Below the pieces are notes generated by a model. That model did not search any database, had not been told where the DNA came from, and was given only the letters and a program-made list of their open reading frames with translations. From a virus (taxonomy: Duplodnaviria; Caudoviricetes), in the IMG/VR virus record IMGVR_UViG_3300029156_000008, positions 1 through 39,683 of that record: a stretch of 39,683 nt of DNA; one strand, 5' to 3'. A program made the translations under genes and the position numbers. Of this stretch, positions 2,944 through 37,631 are shown one piece after another. Each line of letters opens with the position of its first letter. The first letter of the stretch is position 1.

Positions 2944-3224
2944 TCCACCACCTCAGCTTCCACTGTCTCCTCCGTGGGGATGGGGAGCGTGGCTTCGATG
3001 AAGTGCGTGTGCCATTGCACAGATTCTCCAGGGCCGCAGTCGATAGCCGTGCCCGATGAAATTTCGTCGGTTGAGTCCGAGTATCCAGCAGCAGCCCAAT
3101 TGCCCTCTCTGTCCATCGCTACGGCCACTCGTACACGGACTGTCTTCGGTTGGGGGGTGTAGGCTTCCCTGACAACCTCAACGACTGCGTTCAGCTCTTC
3201 TTCAGTCTTTCGTTCGTTTGTCAT
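2940..3224 (-). CDS. Hypothetical phage protein
   Basis: Coupled overlaps; globular-looking sequence. Confidence 0.7.
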   Translation of the reverse strand: MTNERKTEEELNAVVEVVREAYTPQPKTVRVRVAVAMDREGNWAAAGYSDSTDEISSGTAIDCGPGESVQWHTHFIEATLPIPTEETVEAEVVE

Positions 3225-3382
3225 TGGTTCTCGTAGTGGCGGATGAGCTCGATCAACGCTCCAGCCATCGCATCACGCTCATCCTGTGAGGCGCGGGCGT
3301 AGGACTGGGCTACGTGGTCGAGGTGGACGAACGTGTCCGGCTGAGGGGGGAGGAACAGGACAAGGGCGAGCAGGTGTCTCAT
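3221..3382 (-). CDS. 53-aa protein with hydrophobic N-terminus (not in ORF track)
   Basis: MRHLLALVLFLPPQPDTFVHLDH...YENQ; ATGA overlaps at both ends. Confidence 0.65.
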   Translation of the reverse strand: MRHLLALVLFLPPQPDTFVHLDHVAQSYARASQDERDAMAGALIELIRHYENQ

Positions 3383-4174: not shown

Positions 4175-4233
4175 AGATACCAGTATGGGAAAGATCTTCC
4201 CGGTCCAGTAGCCTCGCCCGTGGGAGAGAAACC

Positions 4234-4503
4234 ATGACACCTCAAGAGCGTCTTGCCTGGGCTTGCCTCACAGACATCAATAACCAGCGCCTCATCGGGC
4301 ATTCGGAGGCCTTTGCCAGGGCGGTCAAGTGCCTCGAGGCTTACGAGGAAGAGGAGGTGTCTAACGCTGAGAACGTGATCTATGTGGCGGGGAAGTCCGC
4401 CACGAAGACCGCTGCCCAGGCAGCCTGCCAGGCAGCCAAGACCGGGCTCCCTGCGGTGGACCTAGCCCTCGACATCGCCATCACAGCCATCATCGCCCTC
4501 TGA
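4234..4503 (+). CDS. Hypothetical protein
   Basis: Helical, Ala-rich ORF with purine-rich upstream; 3' end overlaps the convergent gene. Confidence 0.5.
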   Translation: MTPQERLAWACLTDINNQRLIGHSEAFARAVKCLEAYEEEEVSNAENVIYVAGKSATKTAAQAACQAAKTGLPAVDLALDIAITAIIAL

Positions 4504-4740
4504 GGCGCTCTGTGCTGCGCTCTCCGGGGACTTCGGCTTCTTTGTGGCCTCAGGCTCGATCAGACGCTTGATCGCCCCGTAGAGCCCCCCAGCCATCGCC
4601 TTGAGCGTGACCATGTTGTCGATGGGGATCTCCACGGTGTCCGTCGTCCCGCAGGAGCATTGGCGCTTGCGGAAGCACACTCCCGGCAAGCTGTCTGACT
4701 CCCCGTAGAGGGACAGCTCCTTGCAGGTAGGGCAGATCAT
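4462..4740 (-). CDS. NrdR-N-like zinc-ribbon protein
   Basis: MICPTC...DS...FRKRQCSCGTTDTVE matches the NrdR N-terminal Zn ribbon pattern; no ATP cone. Confidence 0.65.
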   Translation of the reverse strand: MICPTCKELSLYGESDSLPGVCFRKRQCSCGTTDTVEIPIDNMVTLKAMAGGLYGAIKRLIEPEATKKPKSPESAAQSASEGDDGCDGDVEG

Positions 4741-4755
4741 CTAGGATGGGTCTCC

Positions 4756-4863
4756 ATGAAGGTCAGACATCAGACACGCCCGAAGCACAACAAGCCCCGG
4801 CTCAGAGCATCGACCAAGATCAAGAAGCTGGTGAAGCTCCCGAGGCCGAAGGTGGGGAAGTGA
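4756..4863 (+). CDS. 35-aa very basic peptide (not in ORF track)
   Basis: MKVRHQTRPKHNKPRLRASTKIKKLVKLPRPKVGK; TAGGAT at 4742-4747 upstream; ends where the periodic tract begins. Confidence 0.4.
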   Translation: MKVRHQTRPKHNKPRLRASTKIKKLVKLPRPKVGK

Positions 4864-5065
4864 TGGGACGCTGGGAAATGTGCAGATCGGGTGAGGCACG
4901 TCATGCGCCGATGTGACTTGAGCCGTGCCGAGATGGGTTGGCTTGTGTCGAGGCGATGCGGTACGACGTGGGTTGGCTTGATGAGGGGCGGTCTGGAACG
5001 AGATGAGTGGATCGGTTCCGATCTGACTTAGGCAGGTGTGATGTGCTGTGAGTCGAGAAGGCCAG
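4855..5065 (-). repeat. Degenerate 5-nt-period array 2 (candidate guide-like ncRNA)
   Basis: Plus-strand G at 4855, 4860 ... 5065 in 42 of 43 units, with the only miss at 5030; other positions variable. Strand assigned from the adjacent genes. Confidence 0.9.
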
Positions 5066-5498
5066 GACGCTTGTCCTGGTGTGGCTGAAGCAGCGCCTTG
5101 CGCTCCTTCTTGATTGCTAGAATCTGACGGGCTTGCGCCATGCTCAGGTCCGAATGCTCTTGCTTGCGGCCTTCCGAGAGCTGCTTCGTGTCCACGGACA
5201 TCATCCGCCGATGGGCTCGGAGCAAACGTCGGATGCCGCGCTCGAAGGACGCATCGTTGTAGATCGAAGCCTCCTCATCGGTGAGGACGTGGATGGCCCC
5301 TTGGCGGACGCACACCGTCACAGCCTCTCCTCGCGCAGCTAGCTCGACTTCGATCTGCTGCGCGAGGGCCAGGGCCTTCAGTGCGAAGTTCTTGTCGAGT
5401 ACGTCCATCTCGATCGCTTCGGAGACATCCCCCGGAGGGATGATGGACCCCTTCTTCAGCGAATCGAAGTCAAGCGGATACGGGCTGGAGTGGGGCAT
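5028..5498 (-). CDS. 156-aa accessory protein located between the two pentamer arrays
   Basis: Clean ORF with alpha/beta N-half and basic helical C-half; ATG immediately follows array 1. Confidence 0.8.
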   Translation of the reverse strand: MPHSSPYPLDFDSLKKGSIIPPGDVSEAIEMDVLDKNFALKALALAQQIEVELAARGEAVTVCVRQGAIHVLTDEEASIYNDASFERGIRRLLRAHRRMMSVDTKQLSEGRKQEHSDLSMAQARQILAIKKERKALLQPHQDKRPGLLDSQHITPA

Positions 5499-5640
5499 GA
5501 AGTGATGAGTGGAGTAGAGCGGAGACGAAGAGTGCGAATCCGTGATGTTCGGATACGGGTGGGTGGGGGATGGTGTGTGTTGCTAGGGGTCGTGTAGCGT
5601 GGATGCGAACTGTGTAGGCGTGTGTTGCTTCGAGGCGAAT
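5499..5640 (-). repeat. Degenerate 5-nt-period array 1 (candidate guide-like ncRNA)
   Basis: Plus-strand G at 5502, 5507 ... 5637 in 27 of 28 units (miss at 5537); fills the intergenic gap downstream of the RAMP-like gene. Confidence 0.9.
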
Positions 5641-5650
5641 GACAACCTAC

Positions 5651-6235
5651 TCACTTCACGGCGAAAGACTCGACCATGAAGCGACCGTGACGCGGGCGTA
5701 GCGTCCCTAGCCCGCAGTTCTCCCCAGCGTACTCAAGCATCTGCTGGAGAATGTCTGGATCGACGGCCTCCGACTGGAACTTCAGCTCGAAGCTCAGGGA
5801 CCAGTTTGGGAACATCGGCATACAACGAAGGATCTTCGACCCCCGAAGCCCCATCATCCCACTCCACCGGAAACGAGGATCCGCCTGAAGCTCCTTCAGG
5901 TCATCCGGGCCGTCATGCTTGATGACGTGCAGTCCGTCGATAAAGACAGACGCCTTGAAGGTCTTCCCTAGGCGGCGGGACTTCGCGGCATCAACAAGGC
6001 AGGCCTCGATGTTGAGCCCGGGGATGCAGGGCTTCATGTCTTCCGTCAGGTAGAGGCCGCCCTGCCACTCAAGCTCCGCTAGGTCCATCAGGTCTTGATC
6101 GACCTTCTTGCGTCGGGATGTGATCTTCTTGATCTCCTTCACGAGCGGGTCCAGGGGGTTGCTGCATCGGATGTTGTGGGAGACCAGGGGTGAGACGCCC
6201 GTGATCTTCGCTCTGGCTGTTTTGTAGGTGGTCAT
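5651..6235 (-). CDS. Stand-alone RAMP/Cas7-like RNA-binding protein (Vipr-like), 194 aa
   Basis: N-terminal strand KITGVSPLVSH, PCIPGLNIEACLVDAA (RAMP IPGxxxK-type motif), MPMFPNWSLSFEL, and C-terminal Gly-rich loop GLGTLRPRHGRF. Start re-called at ATG 6235. Confidence 0.8.
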   Translation of the reverse strand: MTTYKTARAKITGVSPLVSHNIRCSNPLDPLVKEIKKITSRRKKVDQDLMDLAELEWQGGLYLTEDMKPCIPGLNIEACLVDAAKSRRLGKTFKASVFIDGLHVIKHDGPDDLKELQADPRFRWSGMMGLRGSKILRCMPMFPNWSLSFELKFQSEAVDPDILQQMLEYAGENCGLGTLRPRHGRFMVESFAVK

Positions 6236-6322
6236 CCACCCGTTGATATCAGCCGCCTGAGATCCGTGTTGTGGATTCCCGGAAATCTTGATCGCTGCCA
6301 TCTACAGCTACAAGCTGTAGGG
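6236..6322. promoter_or_regulatory. Divergent promoter region between RAMP-like gene and terL
   Basis: Contains copy 2 of ATCCGTGTTGTGGATTCC (6262-6279), TATCAA at -13..-8 of the RAMP ATG, and hairpin CTACAGC-TACAA-GCTGTAG (6302-6320) before the terL ATG. Confidence 0.6.
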
Positions 6323-7927
6323 ATGAGCGAAGAGGAGCCGAAAGAATACGTCTACCAGCCCAGAGGGGCGGTGTGGGACTTGTACTGGGAGAACCGGGAT
6401 CCGGAGGTCCTGCTGGAGGGACCTGCTGGAACTGGAAAGAGCCGTGGCGCTCTCGAGTACGCCTACATGTGCGCGACGAACTATCCGGGTTGCAGGATCT
6501 TGTTCTTGCGCAACGTCAAGTCAACGCTTGCAGAGTCGATCCTTCCCGAATGGGAAAGCTCTGTTCTGTGGCCTGGCCATCCTGTCTTGGCTGGGTCAGA
6601 GCAGATGATGGAGAACCGCCGCTCCTACACCTTCCCACACGCAAAGGTGATCGGAGACGGGACGTTCCACCCAGACGACAAAGGCAAGGTCTACGAAGGT
6701 GAGACCCACATCGTCCTTGGAGGCCTGGATAAGAACCAGGTCGATAAAACTTATTCGTCGCAATATGATCTCATCATCGTCTTCGAGGCTTTCGAGATCA
6801 CCGAGGACGCCTGGCAGAAGCTGTTCCGAGCCAACCGAAACTGGCATATGCCCTGGCAGCAGATGGTGGCGGACACCAACCCGAACATCGCCAACCACTG
6901 GCTGCACCTCCGAGCGGACAAGCCATATGAGGTCCCGCCTGAGCTCAAGGATCAGCTCGATGTGAGACCCGGTCAGACGATGATGACCAGGCTCGTCTCG
7001 AAGCATAAGGACAACCCCAAGTTCTGGGACCACAAGGAGAAGAAGTGGACCCATGCGGGGGCGAACTACATCGCCAAGCTCCACCGTCTCTCAGGGGCTC
7101 GTAAGGACAACCTCCTTCACGGCAAGTGGACCTCAGTTGAGGGTCTGATCTTCGAGGACTGGAACCGTGGCACGCACGTCATCCATGCGGAGCTGAAGAC
7201 GGAGCATGGTGTTCACAAGCTCTACGTCGAGGACTGGGACGATCCGATCATTCTCACGTGGTTCATCGCTTCGGTGGACTGGGGCTACCACCCGAACCCT
7301 GGGACGGTGCAGGTGTGGGGGATGGACCAGGAGGACCGTCGCTTCCTGGTGGCCGAGATCTACCAGACGAAGAGGCAGTTGGACTGGTGGGCTGACAAGA
7401 TCGCTGATCTCCATGCCCGCTTCGACTTCAAGGCTGTCGTGTGTGATGGCTCGGAGCCCCACAACATCGACGCCCTGAACATGCGGCTGGGGACGTTCCG
7501 GGGTCGAGAGGTCCCGAGCCTGGCTCAGAAGCAGTCCAGGAAGCACAGTTCCCGCACCAGCGGCTGGCAGGCAGGTATCGACCAGATCCGGTTTGGGCTG
7601 AAGTCTCCGGAGGATGGTGTGCCGAGGCTGTTCGTTCTCTCGGATGCTCTGAAGGAGGGTGCGGATCCCGAGCTCCGTGAGTCGGGCAGACCTACGAGCT
7701 TCGCCCAGGAGATGGATCTGTACCGCTACATGCCCAACGAGGACGGGAAGCCGAGGAAGGAGCAGGAGGACCCGAGATGTGATGCTCACGGGATCGACGC
7801 TGCCCGGTATGCCTGGACGTGGGGGTGGAGGAAGGATCTATCACCGAAAGAGCAGAATCAGGCTTACGCTCCCGGCACGTTCGGGGCAGTCTTGGGCCAT
7901 GGAAAGAAACGTCGGGGTGGCAGATAG
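6323..7927 (+). CDS. terL: Terminase large subunit
   Basis: Walker A GPAGTGKS, Walker B-like LIIVFEA, motif C DTNP, nuclease SVDWGY and DAHGIDAARYA; start re-called at ATG 6323. Confidence 0.93.
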   Translation: MSEEEPKEYVYQPRGAVWDLYWENRDPEVLLEGPAGTGKSRGALEYAYMCATNYPGCRILFLRNVKSTLAESILPEWESSVLWPGHPVLAGSEQMMENRRSYTFPHAKVIGDGTFHPDDKGKVYEGETHIVLGGLDKNQVDKTYSSQYDLIIVFEAFEITEDAWQKLFRANRNWHMPWQQMVADTNPNIANHWLHLRADKPYEVPPELKDQLDVRPGQTMMTRLVSKHKDNPKFWDHKEKKWTHAGANYIAKLHRLSGARKDNLLHGKWTSVEGLIFEDWNRGTHVIHAELKTEHGVHKLYVEDWDDPIILTWFIASVDWGYHPNPGTVQVWGMDQEDRRFLVAEIYQTKRQLDWWADKIADLHARFDFKAVVCDGSEPHNIDALNMRLGTFRGREVPSLAQKQSRKHSSRTSGWQAGIDQIRFGLKSPEDGVPRLFVLSDALKEGADPELRESGRPTSFAQEMDLYRYMPNEDGKPRKEQEDPRCDAHGIDAARYAWTWGWRKDLSPKEQNQAYAPGTFGAVLGHGKKRRGGR

Positions 7928-9040: not shown

Positions 9041-9273
9041 CGGTTGATCGGGATCGGAGAGGGCCCATCTCTCTCGCTGGTCCTGATGAAGGCTGAGTCC
9101 CCCTCCGTGGCTCGGTCTGCACGGCATCCAGCTTTTTGTCCAGGCTGGGTGCCGTGCCTTTTTCTGTGAGGGGGGACTGTGGTGAGAAGCACAGGAAGCC
9201 CCACAGACCTCCGAGGAGGAAGAGGGTGACGCCGATCCACATCCCGTAGGTGAGGGTGGCGACGAAGTCCCGG

Positions 9274-9531
9274 TCAGTGGCTTTGCTCTGGAGCACGGGA
9301 GAGGACTCGGTAGAGGTAGGAGGCGGCGGCTTCTTCGTGTCCCTTGTCCTTGCCGCCGATCTCGAGGAAGAAGCGATCGGTCTCCAGGTCGTAGACGGCG
9401 ACCGGGACGATGGTCTGCTTCGCTCCCCAGCTCTCGACGGGGACACGGATGGACTTGACGTTGGTTTCCTCGCAGGCGATGCGTGCGAGGTCCTTACCCC
9501 TCTGGGCTTCTTCGGTTGAGCCGTAGTCCAT
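9274..9531 (-). CDS. Hypothetical protein
   Basis: Start re-called at ATG 9531 (TGATG overlap with upstream peptide gene). Confidence 0.6.
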   Translation of the reverse strand: MDYGSTEEAQRGKDLARIACEETNVKSIRVPVESWGAKQTIVPVAVYDLETDRFFLEIGGKDKGHEEAAASYLYRVLSRAPEQSH

Positions 9532-9772: not shown

Positions 9773-11238
9773 CGAAGCGGCTTGCGGTGTTCGCTCCACA
9801 TCTCGAGGACCCATGGGTAGATGCCTTTCGTTTGTTGGAGGGCGTTCTTGTCCCCGATCACCTGCTTCTCCCAGTACCTGTCGAGGTAGCCGAAGAGGGG
9901 TTCGTGGGAGACGAGGTGCTCTGCCCCCATGAGCTGGGCCGCCAACGTCCATCCCCACCATGTTCGAGCCGTGTCTGAGGTTCGGTAACGAAGGTTCTTC
10001 CAGTTGGGGTCTGATTGGGGGGCGGCCCAACGTACATCGTCCATTCCTCGTCCGATGCGCGTGCCTTTGGGGCCGGCGGGCTTGGCGTGTTGGTTGCCCC
10101 ACTCGTACATGCCGATGTGTTCCTGGGTGTAGTTCCCATAGCCGAGGCTCACGTCCTCCTGGGTTACCTGGAAGGTCTGGTCGATCTCGTTGAAGGCAAC
10201 GCTGGGTTGGCGGAACCGGACGTTCATCATGTCCTCGTCGTCGAGGAGGATGCCTGCGAAGAGGATGGGCCAGAGCCTGCCGGAGTGATGCTGACCACCG
10301 GCTGGGAAGTTGTTGTGTCCTCCGTCCTTGACGATCCCCATGAGGTCGATGCCGTACTGGATGAGGCCGTAGATCAGGGGCTTGTGGTCGTCTGGGTCTG
10401 TGAGGGCTAGGAGGGATGCGATGCCGACAGCGTCACAGATGTCCTTGCCATCCATGGGCATGTTGTTGACCGGGTGGAGCTCCCTCCCAGGCCAGTCAGG
10501 CATGTGGTCGATCCAGGGTCCGGAGGCGAACATCTGGTCTACGGGGATCCATGCCTTGTTCGATCCACCACCTCGAAGGACCTCCTTGGTTGGAGTGCCG
10601 ACGGACTTCACTCTGGGCAGCCGGTCCCACTGGATCATGTCTGTGGTGAACCGGATCCCATCCCTGCCGGAGATGGGGGGACGGAAGAAGCCCTTGGGAG
10701 GCTGTGTACTCACGCAGGAGAGGACCTGGGCCTCCCTGAGCCTCGGACGCTCCACGGAGTCCGGAAGGCTCACAGCGGTCAGCAGAGAGTCTCCTGGGGC
10801 AAGCTCTGAGTTCCTGGGGTTGAGACCGGGGTTGTAGGTGGTCTCTTTGTCGACCTTGACCAGGCCTGTGAACCAAGTGTTGGTCTTGCGGTTGGTCTCT
10901 TTGGGGGAGGGGTTGATCTGGGAGAGGGTCGTTTTGGGGTCTGCTGAGGCGTTGGTGGGGCCTACGAGGACCGGGTCTCCGAGGACGGACATGTAGACAT
11001 CCTGGATTTCAGCTAGGCCCCATTCGATCACGCCGGGGGACTCAGCTATATCGCCTCTGCCAATCGGCGGATCCGGATCAACAGGGGGATCGGGGTCTAC
11101 CGGGTCATCGGGTTCGGTGGGGTGGCCCTGGATGGCCTCGATGGCCCAGCGCTCCATCTGTTGTTGTTCTTCTCGGGTGGCCTCCCGGTAGACGGAGATG
11201 AGCTTGAAGACGTGTTCACGTGTTTGTTCGGGGATCAC
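9769..11238 (-). CDS. 489-aa enzyme-like protein of unknown function with Pro/Asp linker
   Basis: Short helical N-terminus, DDPVDPDPPVDPDPP linker, then a large Trp/His-rich domain (QYGIDLMG...GGQHHSGRLWPILFAGILL). Confidence 0.8.
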   Translation of the reverse strand: MIPEQTREHVFKLISVYREATREEQQQMERWAIEAIQGHPTEPDDPVDPDPPVDPDPPIGRGDIAESPGVIEWGLAEIQDVYMSVLGDPVLVGPTNASADPKTTLSQINPSPKETNRKTNTWFTGLVKVDKETTYNPGLNPRNSELAPGDSLLTAVSLPDSVERPRLREAQVLSCVSTQPPKGFFRPPISGRDGIRFTTDMIQWDRLPRVKSVGTPTKEVLRGGGSNKAWIPVDQMFASGPWIDHMPDWPGRELHPVNNMPMDGKDICDAVGIASLLALTDPDDHKPLIYGLIQYGIDLMGIVKDGGHNNFPAGGQHHSGRLWPILFAGILLDDEDMMNVRFRQPSVAFNEIDQTFQVTQEDVSLGYGNYTQEHIGMYEWGNQHAKPAGPKGTRIGRGMDDVRWAAPQSDPNWKNLRYRTSDTARTWWGWTLAAQLMGAEHLVSHEPLFGYLDRYWEKQVIGDKNALQQTKGIYPWVLEMWSEHRKPLR

Positions 11239-15729: not shown

Positions 15730-16163
15730 CCTGGAGCGTCCTCTGCTCTGACCATCGCCTTGACAGCGCCCCAGATGGCTCTGTGGTCGTCTGTGACGGG
15801 GGTATCCGCCCCAACCTGCCCTTCGACGCCTTCTGCACCATCCTGGCCCCCAGCGCGCTCTCAGAGAGCCTGGACGACATCCGGGCCTTCACCTCCCGCC
15901 TGTGGTCTCCCCTGTACCTTGGTGACGCTTGGTCCAAGACCCTCTCCCTGGTCCCGGAACCCTGGCCCTGGCCACCTGAGATCCCCTGGGTGCCCCGCCT
16001 TCCCCGCCGTTCGTACTTCTACGCAGTCTCCTGCTGCCTCCACCTGGGGGCCACGAAGATCGACATCTACGGCTGGGATGGGGATGAACGGGAGCGGATC
16101 CGGATGGAGGACCTGATCCGCCTCGCAGGGGAGAATCAGGTCAGGATTACGCTCCGAGGGTAG
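15726..16163 (+). CDS. Hypothetical protein, possibly degenerate Rossmann-like transferase
   Basis: LGATKIDIYGWD resembles the G-x-x-x-I-x-L-x-G-x-D motif of DUF115/sialyltransferase-like folds. Confidence 0.5.
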   Translation: MTWSVLCSDHRLDSAPDGSVVVCDGGIRPNLPFDAFCTILAPSALSESLDDIRAFTSRLWSPLYLGDAWSKTLSLVPEPWPWPPEIPWVPRLPRRSYFYAVSCCLHLGATKIDIYGWDGDERERIRMEDLIRLAGENQVRITLRG

Positions 16164-17211: not shown

Positions 17212-18468
17212 ATGGCTGGAACAGCCCTCGAGGAGTTCACACAACTCCTCGCCGCTCAGGGACCCGCGTGGAGAACCGGGCCTGAGAAGATCATCAACGA
17301 AGGTGTCAAGCGCACCTATACGTGGCCTCGCCTCGTCAAGGGCAAGGACATGGAAGAGATGATTGATGGCGGTGATGTGATCACCGACACGATCTTCTTC
17401 GACGTCAAGTCGTCCTTCCAGCGCTACAGCCCGAACGCTTCGTTCGACTACGACAACTTCCAAGTCGGTACGACCTGGACGGTGCCGTGGGCGTTCGCGA
17501 CCGCGAACATCTCGATCACGAAGCACGAGCTTGGTCTGAACAAGTCCAAGCACACGGGCAAGTACCGCACGCAGCGCTACAAGAAGGTCCTTCGGCAGAA
17601 GCACCAGAACCTCTGGACCGATGTCTGCAACAGCATCGACTCCGAATTCTGGGCCGCCCCGAATGCGAACCTCATGGAGGTCTCCGCGCCGACCGGAAGT
17701 CGAATCCCGTATTCGATCCCGGTCTTCGTCAACGAGAACTCTGACGCTTCCAACCCGACTGCTACCGGCGTCAACGGCCTTCCGAGCCCTGTCGCTGCCG
17801 AGTGGTCCACGAACGCCGCTACTGTCATGGGGATCAACCCCGCGACGAAGACGAAGTGGCAGAACCAGCGTGAGTCCTACAACTTCGCGGCAACCTCAGC
17901 GGTTCTGGCAGCCGGGATCTTCCCGGCGATGACGAAGCTGAAGTTCAAGTGCTCTTTCGATCGCCTTCCGAAGCGTGAGGAGTACTCGGACAAGACGACT
18001 TCGCCTCACGTCATCCTGACGAACCTGGAAGGCATCTCGAACTACGAGGTTGCTCTGCGTCTCAACCAGGACGAGTTCCGTGGCGTCGGCAAGATGTCGG
18101 GTCAAGACCCGAACTACGACAAGCCGACGTTCGGTGGTATCCCGCTCGACTACATCAGCGAGCTCGACACCGCCGCGATCTACCCGACGGGTTCCACGGC
18201 GGGTGGCTTCGGCACCTACGACGACGGCACTAACACCACGAACACTGGTGGGGTTGGATTCGTCGGGCCTCGCTACACCTGGATCAACGGTGAGTACATG
18301 AAGCTCGTCATGCACGACGAGAACTACATGGAGCTCGGTGATCCGTTCACTCCCTCGGCCCAGCCGTTCACCCGTGTCCAGGTCATGGACATGTGGAACA
18401 ACTTCCTGGCCACCTCCCGTATGCGTCACGGGCAACTGTACCCCGCCGCAAACATCACCAGCGCCTGA
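17212..18468 (+). CDS. Major capsid protein
   Basis: 418 aa, strong codon bias, AAGGA upstream; DGGDVI and FGGIPLDY motifs; scaffold-MCP-cement context. Confidence 0.88.
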   Translation: MAGTALEEFTQLLAAQGPAWRTGPEKIINEGVKRTYTWPRLVKGKDMEEMIDGGDVITDTIFFDVKSSFQRYSPNASFDYDNFQVGTTWTVPWAFATANISITKHELGLNKSKHTGKYRTQRYKKVLRQKHQNLWTDVCNSIDSEFWAAPNANLMEVSAPTGSRIPYSIPVFVNENSDASNPTATGVNGLPSPVAAEWSTNAATVMGINPATKTKWQNQRESYNFAATSAVLAAGIFPAMTKLKFKCSFDRLPKREEYSDKTTSPHVILTNLEGISNYEVALRLNQDEFRGVGKMSGQDPNYDKPTFGGIPLDYISELDTAAIYPTGSTAGGFGTYDDGTNTTNTGGVGFVGPRYTWINGEYMKLVMHDENYMELGDPFTPSAQPFTRVQVMDMWNNFLATSRMRHGQLYPAANITSA

Positions 18469-24700: not shown

Positions 24701-25743
24701 GAGCTGTACCTTCGAGTCTTCCTGGATGGGCGATTGGAGCCCAGTCCGCTGCGAACACGGGGGAGGGCTTGCAGAAGCAAGCTCTCCGTGAGCAGGCGTT
24801 GGCCCAGCGTGGCCAGGAGGAGCAGCGCCGCCAGCAGCAGTATCAGTTTGCTGTCCAGCAGGCCCAGCAGAAGTTCCAGGCTGAGGAAGCGGAGCGCCAA
24901 GCCCAGCTCGGCCAGGCTCAGGATGCTCTAGGCCAGCAGCGTGACCAGCTCTTCGCAGAGATGCAGGGTGGTCCTGCGACGGTGCAGCAGGACGAGAAGC
25001 TCCGTCAGCTCGAAGGGATCGCCAAGAACCTGACCCCGGAGAACGCGGAGCAGCTCATCGGTGAGTTCGAGAAGATGGAGCTTAGGGACAAGACGACTCA
25101 GGCTTTCCAGTCTGTTGGGCAGGAGGTGATGAGTCAGGTCGAGGGTGGTGCGATCGAGGATCCCAAGACCCAGCAGGAGCTTCAGGCTCTCCAGCAGCAG
25201 GCTGATCAGTTTGCTCAGATGACTGGGGCTGGGGCTTTCGATAGGACCCCCCAGCAGGCAGCCCGGATGATCGAGGGGGTGATGGAGAAGAAGGACCAGA
25301 TCCTCAACGAGCATGTGGATCGCAAGAGCAAGCAGATGGACATCGAGAAGTCTGTTCAGACCTTCGACGCTCGCCTGGCTCAGGTCGCTCCGGGCAGTCC
25401 CAAGTTCCAGCGACTTTCAAGGATCCGGGAAGAGGTGGTCCTGGGCAGGATGACTCCGAAGGAGGCTGGGAAAATGCTGGTAGCGTCTGAGTTCGACCTG
25501 ACGGACAAGGACATGGAGGAGGCGAAGGAGATGGCCTTCAGGCAAGCTCTCGAGGAAGGCGGCTTCCTGGGTCCGATCCAGGCGGCAGCGAAGCAGGCGA
25601 TGGGGTCAGCTCCGCAGGGTCCGGACACCTCGGGCCTCCAGCAGGTCTTGGCGAGCGGTGATCGTGACGGATTTATCCGTATGTCCGAGGAGATGGGTCT
25701 GAGTGTCGAGGAGATCCGGGAGCTGATCAGTGGTGCAAGGTGA
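24697..25743 (+). CDS. Internal virion/DNA ejection protein (medium)
   Basis: Gln-rich coiled coil; second of three. Confidence 0.7.
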   Translation: MRAVPSSLPGWAIGAQSAANTGEGLQKQALREQALAQRGQEEQRRQQQYQFAVQQAQQKFQAEEAERQAQLGQAQDALGQQRDQLFAEMQGGPATVQQDEKLRQLEGIAKNLTPENAEQLIGEFEKMELRDKTTQAFQSVGQEVMSQVEGGAIEDPKTQQELQALQQQADQFAQMTGAGAFDRTPQQAARMIEGVMEKKDQILNEHVDRKSKQMDIEKSVQTFDARLAQVAPGSPKFQRLSRIREEVVLGRMTPKEAGKMLVASEFDLTDKDMEEAKEMAFRQALEEGGFLGPIQAAAKQAMGSAPQGPDTSGLQQVLASGDRDGFIRMSEEMGLSVEEIRELISGAR

Positions 25744-28700
25744 CTATGGAGCCCTGTTTGACGAGCTGAGGGGGAAGCCGAAGGTTGGCAACGACTATGG
25801 AGCCCTGTTTGACGAGCTGAGGGGGAAGCCGAAGGTTGGCAACGACTACGGGGCTTTGTTCGATGAGCTGGCCGGGAAGGCCCAGCCTCAGCAATTCGCT
25901 GAGGGCCCTTATGAAGAGGGTTTCAACGTCGAGTTCGCCCCCCAGGCAGACCAGTACGGCCTCGGCTTCGATCAGGCGACGGAGCTCGGACGCGCCCAGG
26001 CGGGCCAGGAGAGGGCAGACCTGGTCAATCAGGCCACAGGCGCGGCCCTCACAGCCCTCCGTCCTGCCGGGCTGATGAACAGGGGCCTCGCACTCGGCAC
26101 AGGATTGGCTCTAGGAGGGTTTGAGACCGCTACGGGGGCTGAACGCGGGTTCCTGACAGATGAGCGTCTGGAGAAGTACAGGGCGTCTCAGGGGCCTGCT
26201 CCGAGAAACAAGCTGGAGCAGACAATCGAGACGATCGGAGCCCAGCTCCCGAAGATGGCCCTCGGCACAGTCTCCTTACCTGCAACGGGCGTCCTGGGGA
26301 TGCTGGAGCTGGGCCAAGCGAACTATCTCGACACGCTTGAGGCCACGGGAGACAAGGATCAGGCCGAGAAGGTCTTCTGGGCCTCGTCTCCCCTGGGTCT
26401 CTCGGAGATGCTCCTTCCCGGTCTCTCGAGGCTCCCTGCCATGAAGCCCATCCTGGGTCGGCTGGGGCAGATCATGGCGAGGGCTCAGTCCAGCGGGAAG
26501 CTGGGTCGCGCCGGGCTCGGAGCCTTGACGGAGGGGCTCCAGGAGGGTGGGGAGACCTTCGCCTCCAACGTCATCGCGGATCACATGACCACCGAGGACC
26601 GGGACTGGCTCCAGGGGGTGGTGGAGAACACGGAGATGGGCGGCTATGTCGGAGGGGTCCTGAATCTGATCTTCCCGGCCCTGACGAAGCGGGTAAAGGG
26701 CGGGACCCAGCCTCCGGGCCCGTTAGGTACGGAGACCGATGCCCCGCCCCCGTCCAGCCCCACCGTGGGGTCGGACATCCAGTCCGGACAGGCTACCACG
26801 GAGCTGGAAGCCTCACTGGAGAACACCGCCATCCAGCGTGAGCGGAAACTAAAAGGATCTGAGGACGCTTATAATTCCACTTTTGAAAAGACGGAGGACC
26901 CCGTCTACGAAGCTGCCGTAGAGCGGGAGATGGCTAAGGGCATCGGCTTCAAGGCTGCTGACAAGATCGCCAGGGAGGAGTCCTCCGAGGCCTTCAGGCA
27001 GGCGGACATCGAGCGTGCCCGTAAGGAGGGAGCTCTGTTCCCCGAGGAGCTGACATCCATCCCGGAGATCCAGGCTCCGAAGGAGAAGGGTGGTGGAGCC
27101 AAGGCCATCCTCCCCGAGACTCCCCAGACCGCCCCGGTCTTCGATGATCCTGAGTTCACGGCCATCTACGAGACCGAGCTCGCGAAAGGTGATGGGCACA
27201 AGGCCGCCCTCGACCGTGCGCTTGCTCAGGCGGACGAAACGCTCGTTCCGAAGAGGGTCCGCGAAGACCTCCTGAAGCGAGGCTCTCTGTATCCGGAAAT
27301 CGAGGCTCAGGACACGATTGCGGATCAGGCAGAGAACCCGGTCAAGGCTCCGGACAAGCTCACCAACACCTTCGAGGTGCTGGACGAGGACGGGAACCCG
27401 ACAGGGGAGACGCGAACCGAGCGGGTGCTGGCTGATTCCCCGATCGCTCGGGTGCAACGAGCCGCACCCATCGTCGATCCCAAGGCCCCCTTCGCCGCTT
27501 ACCGAGTGAGCAAGGTCGGCAAGAAGAAGTCCATGTCGGCCTTCCTGGACTCCACGATCACCCCCGAGGATGTGGGTGCGGAGTCGGTCCAGGCCTTCCC
27601 CCCGCCTCTCAAGACGCTCCTGGGTCACTTCAAGAACCCCAAGGAAGCGAAGCTCCCGCCCAAGACCAAGGTCCCTTCGGTCAAGTCGAAGCATCCCACG
27701 ATGGAACTCCTGGATGGGTGGCTGGGGGATCGCCAGCTAGCTGACCAGGCCTACGAGATCGACGCCTCGAACAAGGAGAAGACGCTCTCGAACTTGCTCT
27801 CATCGGACGGCTTCAAGGGCAAGAAGGCGGTGCAGCAGGAGATCGCCGCCGCGATGCACCTCTACATCGACACCAAGGACAACTTCGATGCGGAGTACGC
27901 GAAGTTTGGCGAGAAGCTCACCCCAAGGCAGCAGCGCATCGTCAAGCGGATGCAGTCACTCTCCCCGGAGCTGAAGGCTTTCGCGGACCAGATTGCAGAG
28001 GAGAACAAGGCCTTCGGTGAGTTCTCGAAGGACAAGGGTGTGATCGAGAACGTGCGGGAGAACTACACCGCCCGCCTTTGGAAGCCCGACGCGAAGGGTC
28101 CGAAGGCTGCGAAGCACGGATCCTTCACCCAGAGCACGGGTCGTGCCCGCAGGCGAACCCTCTCCTCGATCCTGGAGGGGTGGGCTGAAGGGAAGGAGCT
28201 TGCAGTCGAGAGCGTGATCAATGCCCAGCTTCTCGCTCGCCAGCAAGTGGCTCAGGTCATCCACGACCGCAACCTGATTGAGGTGGGCAAGAAGTCTGGC
28301 ATGTTCACGGACAAGCCAGAGGAGGGCTATGCCCAGGTGGAGCACCCGAACTTCCAGCACTGGAAGTATTCAGGCAAGGGAGAGAATCTCGATACGTTCG
28401 GTAAGGGTGTGTTCGGAACGGAGGACGGAGCGATCCTGGAGCGTGTCCCGCTCTATGCCCCGGAGAAGCTGGCTGAGAGGCTCAACAACATCCTCGGCAA
28501 GAGTCGCCTCAAGGCCGAGACGATCACGAAGTACAACGCTCTGGCGAAGCAGACGTTGCTCTTCACGTCCCTGTTCCACCACCAGGCCTTCATCCGCTCC
28601 TTCACGGGCGGCACGCCGGGGTTCTTCTCGAACAAGACTTACAACATCCCCAAGCACTACAAGCAGGGGATGAAGGCGATCGAGGAGTTCACACCTGAGC

Positions 28701-29779
28701 TCCAAGGTCTCGTCCACGCCGGTCTGACCCTCGGCAAGATCCAGGACTTCGATGAGATGGCTGTCCAGCAGGACAACATCATCAACGACACGATCAACAA
28801 GGTCCCGATGGCGAAGGGCATCAAGGATAAGATCGTCGCGTTCCGTGATCAGCAGACCGACTTCCTCTTCAAGAAGATGGGCCCTGCCCTGAAGGCCCAA
28901 GCTGCGCTCCTCGAGTACCAGCACCTCGTCGAGAAGAACAAGGGAGCCTTGGCCGAAGGGAAGATCACCAGTTCAGATATCGCAGAGACGGTGGCGAGCA
29001 TCGTCAATGATGACTTTGGTGGGTTGAACCTCCAGAAGATGGGGCGGGACCCGACGAGGCAGCATATCTTCCGCCTTTTGGCTCTCGCTCCCGACTGGAC
29101 GGAGTCGAACGTCCGCTCGATGGTCAAGGCCTTCAAGGGAGGGTTCGAGGGCAAGGTCTACCGGAACATGTGGGCCCGTGTATTCGCGCGCTTCGGTGCC
29201 GCCACGGTGCTGTTCAACATGATGATGGCTAACTGGCCCGGAAGCGACGACGAAGAGCGCATGTCTCCGACAGAGCGGTTTGTCAGTCGCTACAAGAAGG
29301 CCTGGGATACCGGAAAGCTACGCTGGCTCGCGGTCGACATCAGCCCGATCTATCGAGCCACGGGCGGTGAAGACGGCACTCGGAAGTACTTCTCGGTGCT
29401 TGGCCACTTCAAGGACCCGATCAAGTTCGCCTTCAACCCGATCCGCTCTGCCAAGCACAAGTCCAGCCCCCTAGCCTCAATGGTCGCTGAAGCCGCTTTT
29501 GGTACCGACTGGGCGGGTCGCAGGTTCACGACCTTCGCGGAGTTACTGGGGATGGATGAGAAGGGTGACAAGAAGGGCGAGACGGTCACTTGGGACTTTG
29601 GGTCCGAACCGTTGAAGCCCAGTCAGTTCCCTTCGTACGTTATCTCCCAGGCCAAAGGGGTCATGCCGATCCAAGCACAGAATGCCGCAGCTCTCCTTGC
29701 TGGAGAGATGGATTGGTTCAGCGCCATCACCACAGGCTTGGGCCTGATGGTGAGCACCGAGAAAGAGAAAGACCAATGA
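25730..29779 (+). CDS. Large internal virion/DNA ejection protein
   Basis: 1349 aa helical protein; EGLQEGGE motif in a Gly/Ala-rich N-region; LALAPDWT helical C-domain. Confidence 0.75.
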   Translation: MVQGDYGALFDELRGKPKVGNDYGALFDELRGKPKVGNDYGALFDELAGKAQPQQFAEGPYEEGFNVEFAPQADQYGLGFDQATELGRAQAGQERADLVNQATGAALTALRPAGLMNRGLALGTGLALGGFETATGAERGFLTDERLEKYRASQGPAPRNKLEQTIETIGAQLPKMALGTVSLPATGVLGMLELGQANYLDTLEATGDKDQAEKVFWASSPLGLSEMLLPGLSRLPAMKPILGRLGQIMARAQSSGKLGRAGLGALTEGLQEGGETFASNVIADHMTTEDRDWLQGVVENTEMGGYVGGVLNLIFPALTKRVKGGTQPPGPLGTETDAPPPSSPTVGSDIQSGQATTELEASLENTAIQRERKLKGSEDAYNSTFEKTEDPVYEAAVEREMAKGIGFKAADKIAREESSEAFRQADIERARKEGALFPEELTSIPEIQAPKEKGGGAKAILPETPQTAPVFDDPEFTAIYETELAKGDGHKAALDRALAQADETLVPKRVREDLLKRGSLYPEIEAQDTIADQAENPVKAPDKLTNTFEVLDEDGNPTGETRTERVLADSPIARVQRAAPIVDPKAPFAAYRVSKVGKKKSMSAFLDSTITPEDVGAESVQAFPPPLKTLLGHFKNPKEAKLPPKTKVPSVKSKHPTMELLDGWLGDRQLADQAYEIDASNKEKTLSNLLSSDGFKGKKAVQQEIAAAMHLYIDTKDNFDAEYAKFGEKLTPRQQRIVKRMQSLSPELKAFADQIAEENKAFGEFSKDKGVIENVRENYTARLWKPDAKGPKAAKHGSFTQSTGRARRRTLSSILEGWAEGKELAVESVINAQLLARQQVAQVIHDRNLIEVGKKSGMFTDKPEEGYAQVEHPNFQHWKYSGKGENLDTFGKGVFGTEDGAILERVPLYAPEKLAERLNNILGKSRLKAETITKYNALAKQTLLFTSLFHHQAFIRSFTGGTPGFFSNKTYNIPKHYKQGMKAIEEFTPELQGLVHAGLTLGKIQDFDEMAVQQDNIINDTINKVPMAKGIKDKIVAFRDQQTDFLFKKMGPALKAQAALLEYQHLVEKNKGALAEGKITSSDIAETVASIVNDDFGGLNLQKMGRDPTRQHIFRLLALAPDWTESNVRSMVKAFKGGFEGKVYRNMWARVFARFGAATVLFNMMMANWPGSDDEERMSPTERFVSRYKKAWDTGKLRWLAVDISPIYRATGGEDGTRKYFSVLGHFKDPIKFAFNPIRSAKHKSSPLASMVAEAAFGTDWAGRRFTTFAELLGMDEKGDKKGETVTWDFGSEPLKPSQFPSYVISQAKGVMPIQAQNAAALLAGEMDWFSAITTGLGLMVSTEKEKDQ
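25742..25879 (+). repeat. 51-nt in-frame tandem repeat (two identical copies plus a diverged partial copy)
   Basis: Units start at 25742, 25793 and 25844 and encode DYGALFDELRGKPKVGN. Confidence 0.95.
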
Positions 29780-35922: not shown

Positions 35923-36396
35923 ATGGCTAGACCTAGAAATGAGTGGCGTGACGCCGAGGAGTACCTCCTTGAGCGTTGTGAAGAAGACGAGAAAACCGGC
36001 TGCTGGGAGTGGATCGCTGGTCGATCCGGCTGTGGCTATGGAGCTGTGATCTTCCCAGGAGAGAATCGAGCCCACCGGGCGGCTTACAAGGCCTGGAGGG
36101 GGCCTATCCCGAAGGGGATGCAGGTTCGGCACGCCTGCGATAACAAGATCTGCATCAATCCAGATCATCTGCTCGTGGGGTCGTGTGCCGACAACGTGAG
36201 GGATGCCCAGGACCGTGGGCTAAACCCATCCGGAGAGAAGCATGGGATGGCGAAGCTGAACGCTCATGCCGTCTCCATGATCCGAAAGCACTATTCCGAG
36301 GGTCGATTCAACCAACGTGAGCTTGGGGAGATCTTTGGGGTCTCTCAGCTCAATGTGAGCCGAATCGTCCGCAACAAGACTTGGACCGATGCCTGA
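35923..36396 (+). CDS. HNH homing endonuclease with C-terminal HTH
   Basis: GCWEW, GYG, AHRAAY, VRHACDNKICINPDHL, DN, GEKHGMAKL and QRELGEIFGVSQ. Confidence 0.9.
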   Translation: MARPRNEWRDAEEYLLERCEEDEKTGCWEWIAGRSGCGYGAVIFPGENRAHRAAYKAWRGPIPKGMQVRHACDNKICINPDHLLVGSCADNVRDAQDRGLNPSGEKHGMAKLNAHAVSMIRKHYSEGRFNQRELGEIFGVSQLNVSRIVRNKTWTDA

Positions 36397-37631
36397 TGCT
36401 GATCGCCCTGCTGCTCGCCGCTCTCCTGGCCAAGCCTGACGTCCTGATCATCGTTCTGGATGATGTGGGATGGACGGACTTCCAGGCTGTTGATACCCCC
36501 AACCTCGATGAGCTCGCTGACGAGGGAGTCCTCTTCCACCGAGCTTACGCTCACCCCTGGTGTCGTCCGACGCGGGCAGCCTTGCTCTTCTCTGTCTGGG
36601 ATGGGGCGAGCTACGGGAACCTCTGCAAGCTCCCGACGGCCTTCGCTCTCCCTGAGATCGACAGCCTCCCTTCGATTCTCTCGGGCTATTCCACGGGCCT
36701 CTTTGGGAAGTGGCACCTGGGGAACAACAACAACATCGCGTTCACGGCCTGGGAGACGCCCCAGCTCCATGGGTTCGACACTTGGAGGGCGGGGACGCCG
36801 GACAACATCTTCTCCCAGGCCTGCAACTCGCTGGACTACACGGACTGGAAGCGGGTCGATGACGGTGTCGTGACTCCCGGCGTCTCGACCTACAACACGA
36901 TCGCTGTCCGTGATGCGTGGTGTGATTGGTGGACGAACACTCCTGGGGAGAAGATGGCTGTGGTTGCCTACCAGGCGGCTCACGAGCCCTTCCACATCCC
37001 CCCCTCCAGCATCCTCCCTTCGTCCTACACCCCTCCCGCTCAGGTCGGTCCTCGAGAGCAGTACGAGGCGATGGTCCAGAGTTTGGACTTCGTCTTGGGT
37101 GAGATGTTGGAGGTTGTGGACAACGACACCTGGGTCTTTGTTTTTGGGGATAACGGCACGCCCTACAACGCCCTGGCCTCACCTTCCCAGGACCCCTTGA
37201 AGGTGAAGCACACGACCTTTGAACAGGGAGTCCACGTCCCCTTGGTAGTTCGAGGTCCTGGTGCAATCCCTGGGGACTACTTCGGGCCGGTGAACGTGGC
37301 AGACATCATGCCCACGGTCTCGGGCCTGACGATGTCCCTGATGCCTGCCGACAGGGACGGGATCTCCTTCTATGGGGCTCTGATCGGGATGGACTCCCCC
37401 AGGGACTGGACCTACGTCCACACGAAGCGAGGCAATCCCAAGGGTGGGCTTCCTGGGTCTGACGAGGCGGTGATCGAGGAGCGTTGGAAGCTCCGTGAGT
37501 TCGATGGCACTCAGACGCTCTACGATCTCCTGTACGACCCTTTGGAGGAGACTCCCCTGGATCCCGATGACCCGGTCTATGCCGTCCATGTGACGCGGCT
37601 CAGAGCGCTCCTGGCGCAGGCTAGGTCATGA
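36396..37631 (+). CDS. Formylglycine-dependent (S1) sulfatase with signal peptide
   Basis: PDVLIIVLDDVG, TPNLD, CRPTR (CxPxR), GKWHLG, HEPFH, GDNG, K-x-T-x-FEQGVHVP; start at ATG 36396 via TGATG. Confidence 0.92.
   Translation: MLIALLLAALLAKPDVLIIVLDDVGWTDFQAVDTPNLDELADEGVLFHRAYAHPWCRPTRAALLFSVWDGASYGNLCKLPTAFALPEIDSLPSILSGYSTGLFGKWHLGNNNNIAFTAWETPQLHGFDTWRAGTPDNIFSQACNSLDYTDWKRVDDGVVTPGVSTYNTIAVRDAWCDWWTNTPGEKMAVVAYQAAHEPFHIPPSSILPSSYTPPAQVGPREQYEAMVQSLDFVLGEMLEVVDNDTWVFVFGDNGTPYNALASPSQDPLKVKHTTFEQGVHVPLVVRGPGAIPGDYFGPVNVADIMPTVSGLTMSLMPADRDGISFYGALIGMDSPRDWTYVHTKRGNPKGGLPGSDEAVIEERWKLREFDGTQTLYDLLYDPLEETPLDPDDPVYAVHVTRLRALLAQARS

Follow-up and report, generated by a model that had tools for sequence, protein, structure and literature searches.

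Within the window, by which we mean the whole stretch of 39,683 nucleotides analysed here, there is a tract of 43 pentamers on the minus strand (array 2, 4855-5067) that is likely, judged from its sequence and setting, to be a vrRNA guide array of a phage VIPR locus. The locus belongs to the VIPR class and is not of the canonical GGY kind. We put at about 70% the reading that the tract is a guide-RNA array read on the same strand as the vipr gene, its repeat having a fixed portion reduced from GGY to a single pyrimidine, giving XXC/NN. VIPR, first described in 2026, silences genes by means of guide RNAs and is related to CRISPR. According to the preprint text each of its GGY/NN pentamers specifies two bases of a DNA target and the next base is skipped, in alignment with the codon wobble position (bioRxiv 10.64898/2026.04.26.720920). 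The same text gives the noncanonical repeats NNNGG, YNNNG and NNNNG, and that of a later preprint gives GAC/NN, CAC/NN, WGT/NN and TGH/NN (bioRxiv 10.64898/2026.10.21.760802). The window is a phage record, with a terminase large-subunit gene (6323-7927, plus strand) and a major capsid gene (17212-18468).

Scanning the window for periods of 2 to 12 revealed two long period-5 runs, both of plus-strand G. The longest occupies every multiple of 5 from 4855 to 5025, a total of 35 consecutive units, and the second runs from 5542 to 5637 with 20 units. With an off-register G frequency of 0.29 the probability of a 35-unit run is ~1e-19, and the longest run anywhere in 200 trinucleotide-block shuffles of the window was 16 (mean 9.3). 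Our recount and the shuffles thus confirm the 35-unit run of a preliminary description of this DNA. That description had also placed a single miss at 5030 in a stop codon, with the register then resuming, and this too is what we find: position 5030 is A on the plus strand, corresponding to the T of the TAA that ends the gene at 5028-5498, and G returns at 5035-5065. These seven further units fall in codons 145-155 of the 156-amino-acid gene (P ~2.6e-4 from the gene's own G frequency, uncorrected for four possible array ends). On the minus strand C occupies 42 of the 43 anchors of array 2, which run from 5065 down to 4855, and the one exception is the T at 5030. Array 1 (5475-5639, 33 pentamers) has C at 31 of 33 from 5637 down to 5477, the exceptions being T at 5537 and at 5497, the latter lying in the ATG of the accessory gene. 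All three misses in the 76 units are therefore T, and position 3 of the scaffold on the gene strand is a pyrimidine in 76/76 units, with G at position 1 in just 9/76 and at position 2 in 6/76. Array 2 had been thought different from array 1. The two share the same C-anchored scaffold, but array 1 is the richer in CAC, which is among the commonest triplets of the arrays (11/80 units).

No ORF of at least 45 amino acids spans the whole tract, and a pentapeptide-repeat protein was therefore dropped as the source of the periodicity. There are no Rfam matches in the window. The sequence of the stretch containing the arrays is unchanged in contigs of two sequencing runs, which are possibly the window's own source. 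Arrays of 33 and 43 units are of unusual length, though not unique; among 175 arrays ten have at least 30 units, with a maximum of 47. Array 1 contains internal duplications that are in register, 5475-5494 with 5550-5569 (75-nt spacing) and 5572-5584 with 5617-5629 (45-nt spacing), and these may be a record of array growth.

The order of the locus is vipr, array 1, the 156-amino-acid accessory gene and array 2. The vipr gene (5651-6235, minus strand) encodes a protein of 194 amino acids with a RAMP/Cas7-like fold by homology and model. The product matches the Vipr of Escherichia phage SUSP1 (PDB 36pp) with E = 3.7e-29 by phmmer, and its model (pLDDT 92.6) has its best Foldseek matches with Csm3/Cas7 (E 1e-6, TM ~0.5). 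It is a minimal RAMP with a thumb and a G-loop. Together with the tandem pentamer arrays flanking the genes (33 + 43 units) and an accessory gene adjoining vipr, it provides the elements of a VIPR locus, and 82 of 83 related loci likewise have period-5 arrays near vipr. The fold is that of the backbone RAMPs of class 1 CRISPR, from which VIPR differs, according to the preprint text, in its five-base rather than six-base step and its non-contiguous pairing. Neither Vipr nor the accessory protein has a match in Pfam or NCBIfam, peptide patterns found no close relatives of the window Vipr in IMG/VR or the JGI metagenomes, and there is no CRISPR array or cas gene in the window among the proteins scanned. 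At 6177-6206 a low-depth contig of 657 nt joins vipr to a period-5-looking loose end absent from the window; this may represent a chimeric or variant sequence, or else a third array at another place.

In the SUSP1 structures, as given in the preprint text, G1 is read by H17 and D177, G2 by R138 and W178, and Y3 lies in a pocket with R179 from which purines are excluded (10.64898/2026.04.26.720927). The window Vipr has M139, T178 and L179 in the positions of R138, D177 and W178 respectively, so that these canonical guanine-reading residues are absent just as the GGY/NN repeat is absent from its arrays. It retains the equivalents of H17, K33 and R179, including the pyrimidine pocket. Among 161 Vipr homologues R138 is present in 154, D or E at 177 in 144, an aromatic residue at 178 in 127 and R179 in 150, and only the closest homologue (P0014, 58%) shares the absence of all three guanine readers. 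Peptide patterns for loss of R138 gave no matches in IMG/VR and 36 in metagenomes, of which eight are Vipr-like and five have arrays. It is likely that both guanines of the usual repeat disappeared in the window along with their three reader residues.

We have compared residues and repeats across 105 loci with arrays, the window included, reduced to 58 by dereplication at 70%. We left out the window itself, L075 (whose G-loop could not be aligned) and, for L105 and L112, the upstream arrays, which are antisense; L083 and L086 fall in neither group. With intact readers (n = 34) the median frequencies of G1 and G2 are both 0.91. Where D177 is lost (n = 10) the median of G1 falls to 0.65 (P 9e-5) and that of G2, at 0.93, is not lower; where R138 or W178 is lost (n = 10) G1 is 0.84 (P 0.03) and G2 0.54 (P 5e-4), all P values being calculated without regard to kinship. 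In R138F loci G2 is found in 3/49, 5/52 and 0/17 units. A quick tree places the R138F loci (L094, L097, L105 and L112) in a single clade and leaves most T177 loci unresolved, and the covariation has few independent origins. There are counter-examples, since L083 (T177, A178) keeps GGC and L069 (R179T) keeps Y3. Relatives with T177 still have 45-95% G1, and the low 12% in the window therefore goes further than D177T alone would account for. In SUSP1, according to the preprint text, D177A and R138A each abolish silencing, and the window Vipr would thus need compensating changes; none were discerned in its sequence.

Automatic phasing misframed the arrays of three loci in this comparison, and on recounting these are GCC (L110), GCC/GHC (L031) and TGA (L054). 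L054 (IMGVR_UViG_3300032893_000277) has a Vipr with H17Q, D177V and R179T beside TGA/NN arrays at 1675-1947 and 3079-3322, and in front of both arrays there is a T-run that ends in AA. The GCC/NN arrays of L110 (2193-2507) and L031 (2568-2807, both on the vipr strand) lie with Viprs that lack W178, and in L110 R138 also; these arrays could be sense GCC or antisense GGC.

The register of the guide comes from array 1, which has one well-supported natural target. We took each of the five pairs of adjacent bases of the pentamer as a codon prefix, in both arrays and both orientations, and compared these 20 registers with the 22 genes of the window (8874 residues). In array 1 the sense reading of the two bases after C scored 29.6, against a null of 16.4 ± 1.7, and none of 400 shuffles reached it. 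The lowest counts for the other 19 tests were 1, 3 and 4 of 150 shuffles, and these arise from low-complexity or fixed positions, bar one. A test of codon-likeness did not single out this register, an antisense one that takes in the fixed base scoring higher. Under a one-base skip the NN pairs of units 2-11 (5585-5634, minus strand) specify a DNA target encoding D-K-T-Y-S-A-Q-Y-D-L. The terminase gene of the phage itself contains DKTYSSQYDL (6743-6772, plus strand), matching the guide in 17 of 20 bases and 8 of 10 NN pairs. The mismatches lie at TCG TCG, where the first Ser is TCG and the guide has AG, and the second is Ser where the guide has Ala. The predicted Ala is present in 6/6 close terminase relatives (63-70% identity, compared as proteins) and in 0/2 distant ones, and terminase P0166 fits the guide at 10/10 positions at the protein level. 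Of 50 related records, two have terminase matches, and these are weak. The likely target, on this comparison of sequences, is the DNA-packaging (terminase) gene of related phages, and the mismatches would protect the phage from its own guide. There is no perfect self-target in the NN register, in which the terminase site is the best self match; at 80% by NN it stands at the threshold for calling targets used in 10.64898/2026.04.26.720920.

Seven of the ten codons of the phage's own site end in A or T (P 8e-4 adjusted for amino acids), a signal that ranks sixth among non-overlapping windows, five others being as low or lower. The strongest A/T-ending codon patch of the genome lies at 26846-26881 (codons 373-384 of the gene at 25730-29779; P 4e-5 per window). 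It has no match to array 1 or array 2, and might correspond to some guide that lies beyond the window and has its self site here.

The NN register of array 2 would be that of array 1, carried over through the common scaffold. Our searches found no target, either for array 2 or for the remaining units of array 1, in the window (all registers, skips of 0-3), in 1.08 Mb from ~130 loci on both strands, in the protein sets of terminase and Vipr homologues, or in nine stretches of four related phage records. Three exact 8-NN scans of IMG/VR gave 42, 5 and 11 matches, none with more than two extra NN in eight flanking units; two of these scans belong to array 2, with 47 matches in all and none extending. 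A likeness of array 2 to a W-N-R-G stretch in the phage's own terminase was set aside as chance (27/400 shuffles), as were an antisense likeness to a 1349-amino-acid gene (11/400) and a resemblance to Vipr at R-C-M-P.

Both ends of the accessory gene (5028-5498, minus strand) overlap the arrays. This gene is of the vap type and has homologues beside vipr elsewhere, 19 homologous ORFs being found at E ≤ 2e-5 in 83 Vipr loci. Its resemblance to Vap1 is weak (hhalign E 0.02 and 0.094), a word-indexed search returned only the protein itself, there is no fold match in the PDB, and look-alikes in the Atlas are unnamed viral clusters. The register of array 2 overlaps the end of the gene by eight units or 40 nt, and array 1 enters the 5' end by ~20 nt. 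No Shine-Dalgarno-like sequence precedes the ATG at 5498, a region occupied by array 1. At 19 junctions in relatives, each with an array just after the stop codon of vipr or vap, the register enters the gene by at most 10 nt, in a comparison that is generous to the window because relatives were scored on two of three positions and the window on one. The dual coding first proposed is thus real as an overlap of register and coding over these eight units. We find no support for the other suggestion, a protein tail extended into the array. Following the conserved Pro145 there are 11 residues, G-L-L-D-S-Q-H-I-T-P-A, which are unconserved and modelled with low confidence (pLDDT ~50), and the eight of nine aligned homologues that reach the proline continue for ~5-26 residues, mostly 5-10. 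In length the tail falls within their range. Five of the seven anchor Cs in the coding tail are at first or second codon positions, and thus the array likely dictates the sequence of the tail. Nor need the stop codon be seen as a break in the array, as it had been described. The change is from C to T, which is still a pyrimidine and would be accepted by the pocket of Vipr, and TAA probably does not interrupt array 2. Such overlap is cheap, since GGY fixes three of five bases and a C-only scaffold just one.

The terminase match is silent on which strand is transcribed, because both strands give the same double-stranded target. We consider the gene strand likely on sequence grounds, at ~70% or about three to one. 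Of the 116 downstream arrays in 57 loci, 106 share the strand of vipr, and the seven scored antisense belong to the TGA or GCC type or are probably a run by chance; array 1, moreover, lies between two genes on that strand. The composition of the NN pairs also favours the gene strand (LLR 5.4, in a test whose sign was right in 42 of 56 leave-one-out cases).

A less probable reading, yet one to be taken seriously, is that the same VIPR, with the same NN code and targets, uses the plus strand, so that the RNA is antisense to vipr and vap and the repeat is G-R-K/NN. This would fit the published NNNNG repeats, and both NNNNG and YNNNG are in print in the text of 10.64898/2026.04.26.720920. G would then occupy position 1 in 73/76 units, similar to L094 (G1 49/49, G2 lost), and H17, one of the G1 readers, is retained, while on the gene strand the G1 of 12% is below that of any relative with T177. 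Antisense VIPR arrays do exist. The upstream arrays of L112 (1064-1276) and L105 (1438-1513, both in vipr-strand coordinates) are antisense, with GTT/GCT on the other strand. Following array 2 on the plus strand there is a perfect 7-bp hairpin with a 4-nt loop (5062-5079, at the array edge inside the accessory gene) and a terminator-like hairpin (5092-5104, plus strand, a match to consensus only), and a codon-like 35-amino-acid ORF (4756-4863, plus strand) points into the array. The gene strand has a terminator-like hairpin of its own ~45 nt past array 2 (4794-4808), again a match to consensus only. Against the plus strand is the third position, which would be a purine in 44/76 units although R179 and the pocket are kept, a pocket reported in the text of 10.64898/2026.04.26.720927 to exclude purines. 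In relatives with an aligned R179 the share of purine at this position is at most 0.32, and L075 (0.66) has a changed G-loop. An invariant G1 is also unexpected with T177, and the location of the arrays favours the gene strand as above.

No significant 3' tail structure was found on either strand (z from -0.15 to -1.42), with no shared tail, and there is no sigma-70-like promoter in 4200-6500. No RNA run is listed among the sequencing runs as holding the window sequence. The ORF at 4756-4863 encodes a very basic peptide with phage-like codon usage (5/34 A/T-ending codons), is divergent from the gene at 4462-4740 (minus strand) with 15 nt between the starts, and reaches with its stop into the end of array 2. 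In L112 the downstream array is sense, and there are thus divergent guide arrays in the R138F clade.

It is improbable that the system has decayed, with its RNA-reading residues lost and the arrays left as drifting remnants. All three guanine readers are replaced where single alanine changes at two of them are fatal to SUSP1 VIPR, and array 2 has no target that we could find. Against this, the anchor is kept in 73/76 units with changes only from C to T, neither gene is disrupted, the closest homologue shows the same residue losses, and a guide of ten NN pairs still fits the terminase of relatives, the phage's own gene alone being different. The unit Y-C-R-N-N of the preliminary description, with Y-C-R fixed, NN two bases on and a protein tail grown into the array, is the least credible; the register does enter the coding tail and the flanking bias is genuine (on the plus strand, pyrimidine before the G in 26/35 and purine after it in 27/35, where 26/33 and 26/34 had been counted), but canonical guides too have an excess of purine after the fixed bases, at N4 (65% of 1720 units), the length of the tail is in the range of homologues, the YCR/NN register gave a weaker match that 4/150 and 65/150 shuffles reached, and the terminase match, which uses the two bases after C, contradicts this unit and requires XXC/NN with a one-base skip.

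We therefore return to a C-anchored guide array on the vipr strand as the likely reading. By analogy with SUSP1, one Vipr subunit would bind each pentamer, its Y3 pocket would take the anchor C, the next two bases would pair with two of every three bases of the target, and silencing would result from binding. The system would repress related rival phages, with one guide aimed at their terminase gene just before Walker B, and the phage would spare itself by the mismatch of two central NN pairs to the site in its own terminase. Array 2 would begin 40 nt inside the unconserved accessory tail and cross the TAA with no functional break, as a scaffold with a single fixed base in five that tolerates T would allow. 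A more elaborate scheme is speculative. In this the triple loss of residues gave rise to the single-pyrimidine scaffold under a pocket code in which D177 specifies G1, R138 and W178 specify G2, and R179 specifies Y3, guides become cheap within coding sequence, and a Vipr filament lies over the start codon and tail of vap. If that were so, a filament on vap mRNA could couple translation of vap to occupancy by Vipr.

In comparison with type II VIPR of SUSP1 as given in the preprint text, the window has the same kind of phage locus, with a homologous Vipr, one accessory gene and pentamer arrays, and the same NN code with a one-base skip aligned to wobble, a likely target in competing phages and an imperfect self match. 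It differs in the XXC scaffold and the replacement of R138, D177 and W178, in having 33 and 43 uninterrupted repeats with no recognisable tail where SUSP1 has 9-16 repeats and a conserved structured 3' tail, in the overlap of arrays with both ends of the accessory gene, and in the weak resemblance of the accessory protein to Vap1. Like the noncanonical repeats in the preprint texts, these arrays have period 5 beside a protein of Vipr fold, a fixed part other than GGY, and CAC as a common triplet; unlike them, two of three scaffold positions are degenerate and poor in G. We did not find a C-only scaffold or arrays overlapping the ends of vap in the text of the VIPR preprints, whose figures and supplements may hold cases, nor did we find there a connection of variant repeats with Vipr residues or a natural target for them.

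The natural triple substitution beside a repeat free of G, to which relatives add counterparts at single positions, provides a testable rule for scaffold recognition by Vipr. If a Vipr takes no notice of GGY guides, canonical systems could be orthogonal to it, as could GGY-type decoy guides as described in the text of 10.64898/2026.10.15.759431. Searches with YNNGG miss C-anchored arrays. The terminase site offers a natural pair of target and self with which to measure the mismatches that protect a phage from its own guide.

A stretch resembling these arrays is present in the Pseudomonas phage vB_Pae_LESphi2 (L003, 1460-1535), with 16 C-anchored units at period 5 in an intergenic position ~1 kb upstream of a canonical vipr, and may be chance. 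Elsewhere in the window there are period-9 runs at 10306-10441 and 15770-15896 (16 G and 15 C) and a period-6 run at 9249-9315 (12 G), which are probably repeat peptides. The phage also encodes a sulfatase at 36381-37631 on the plus strand (PF00884, E 1.8e-27).
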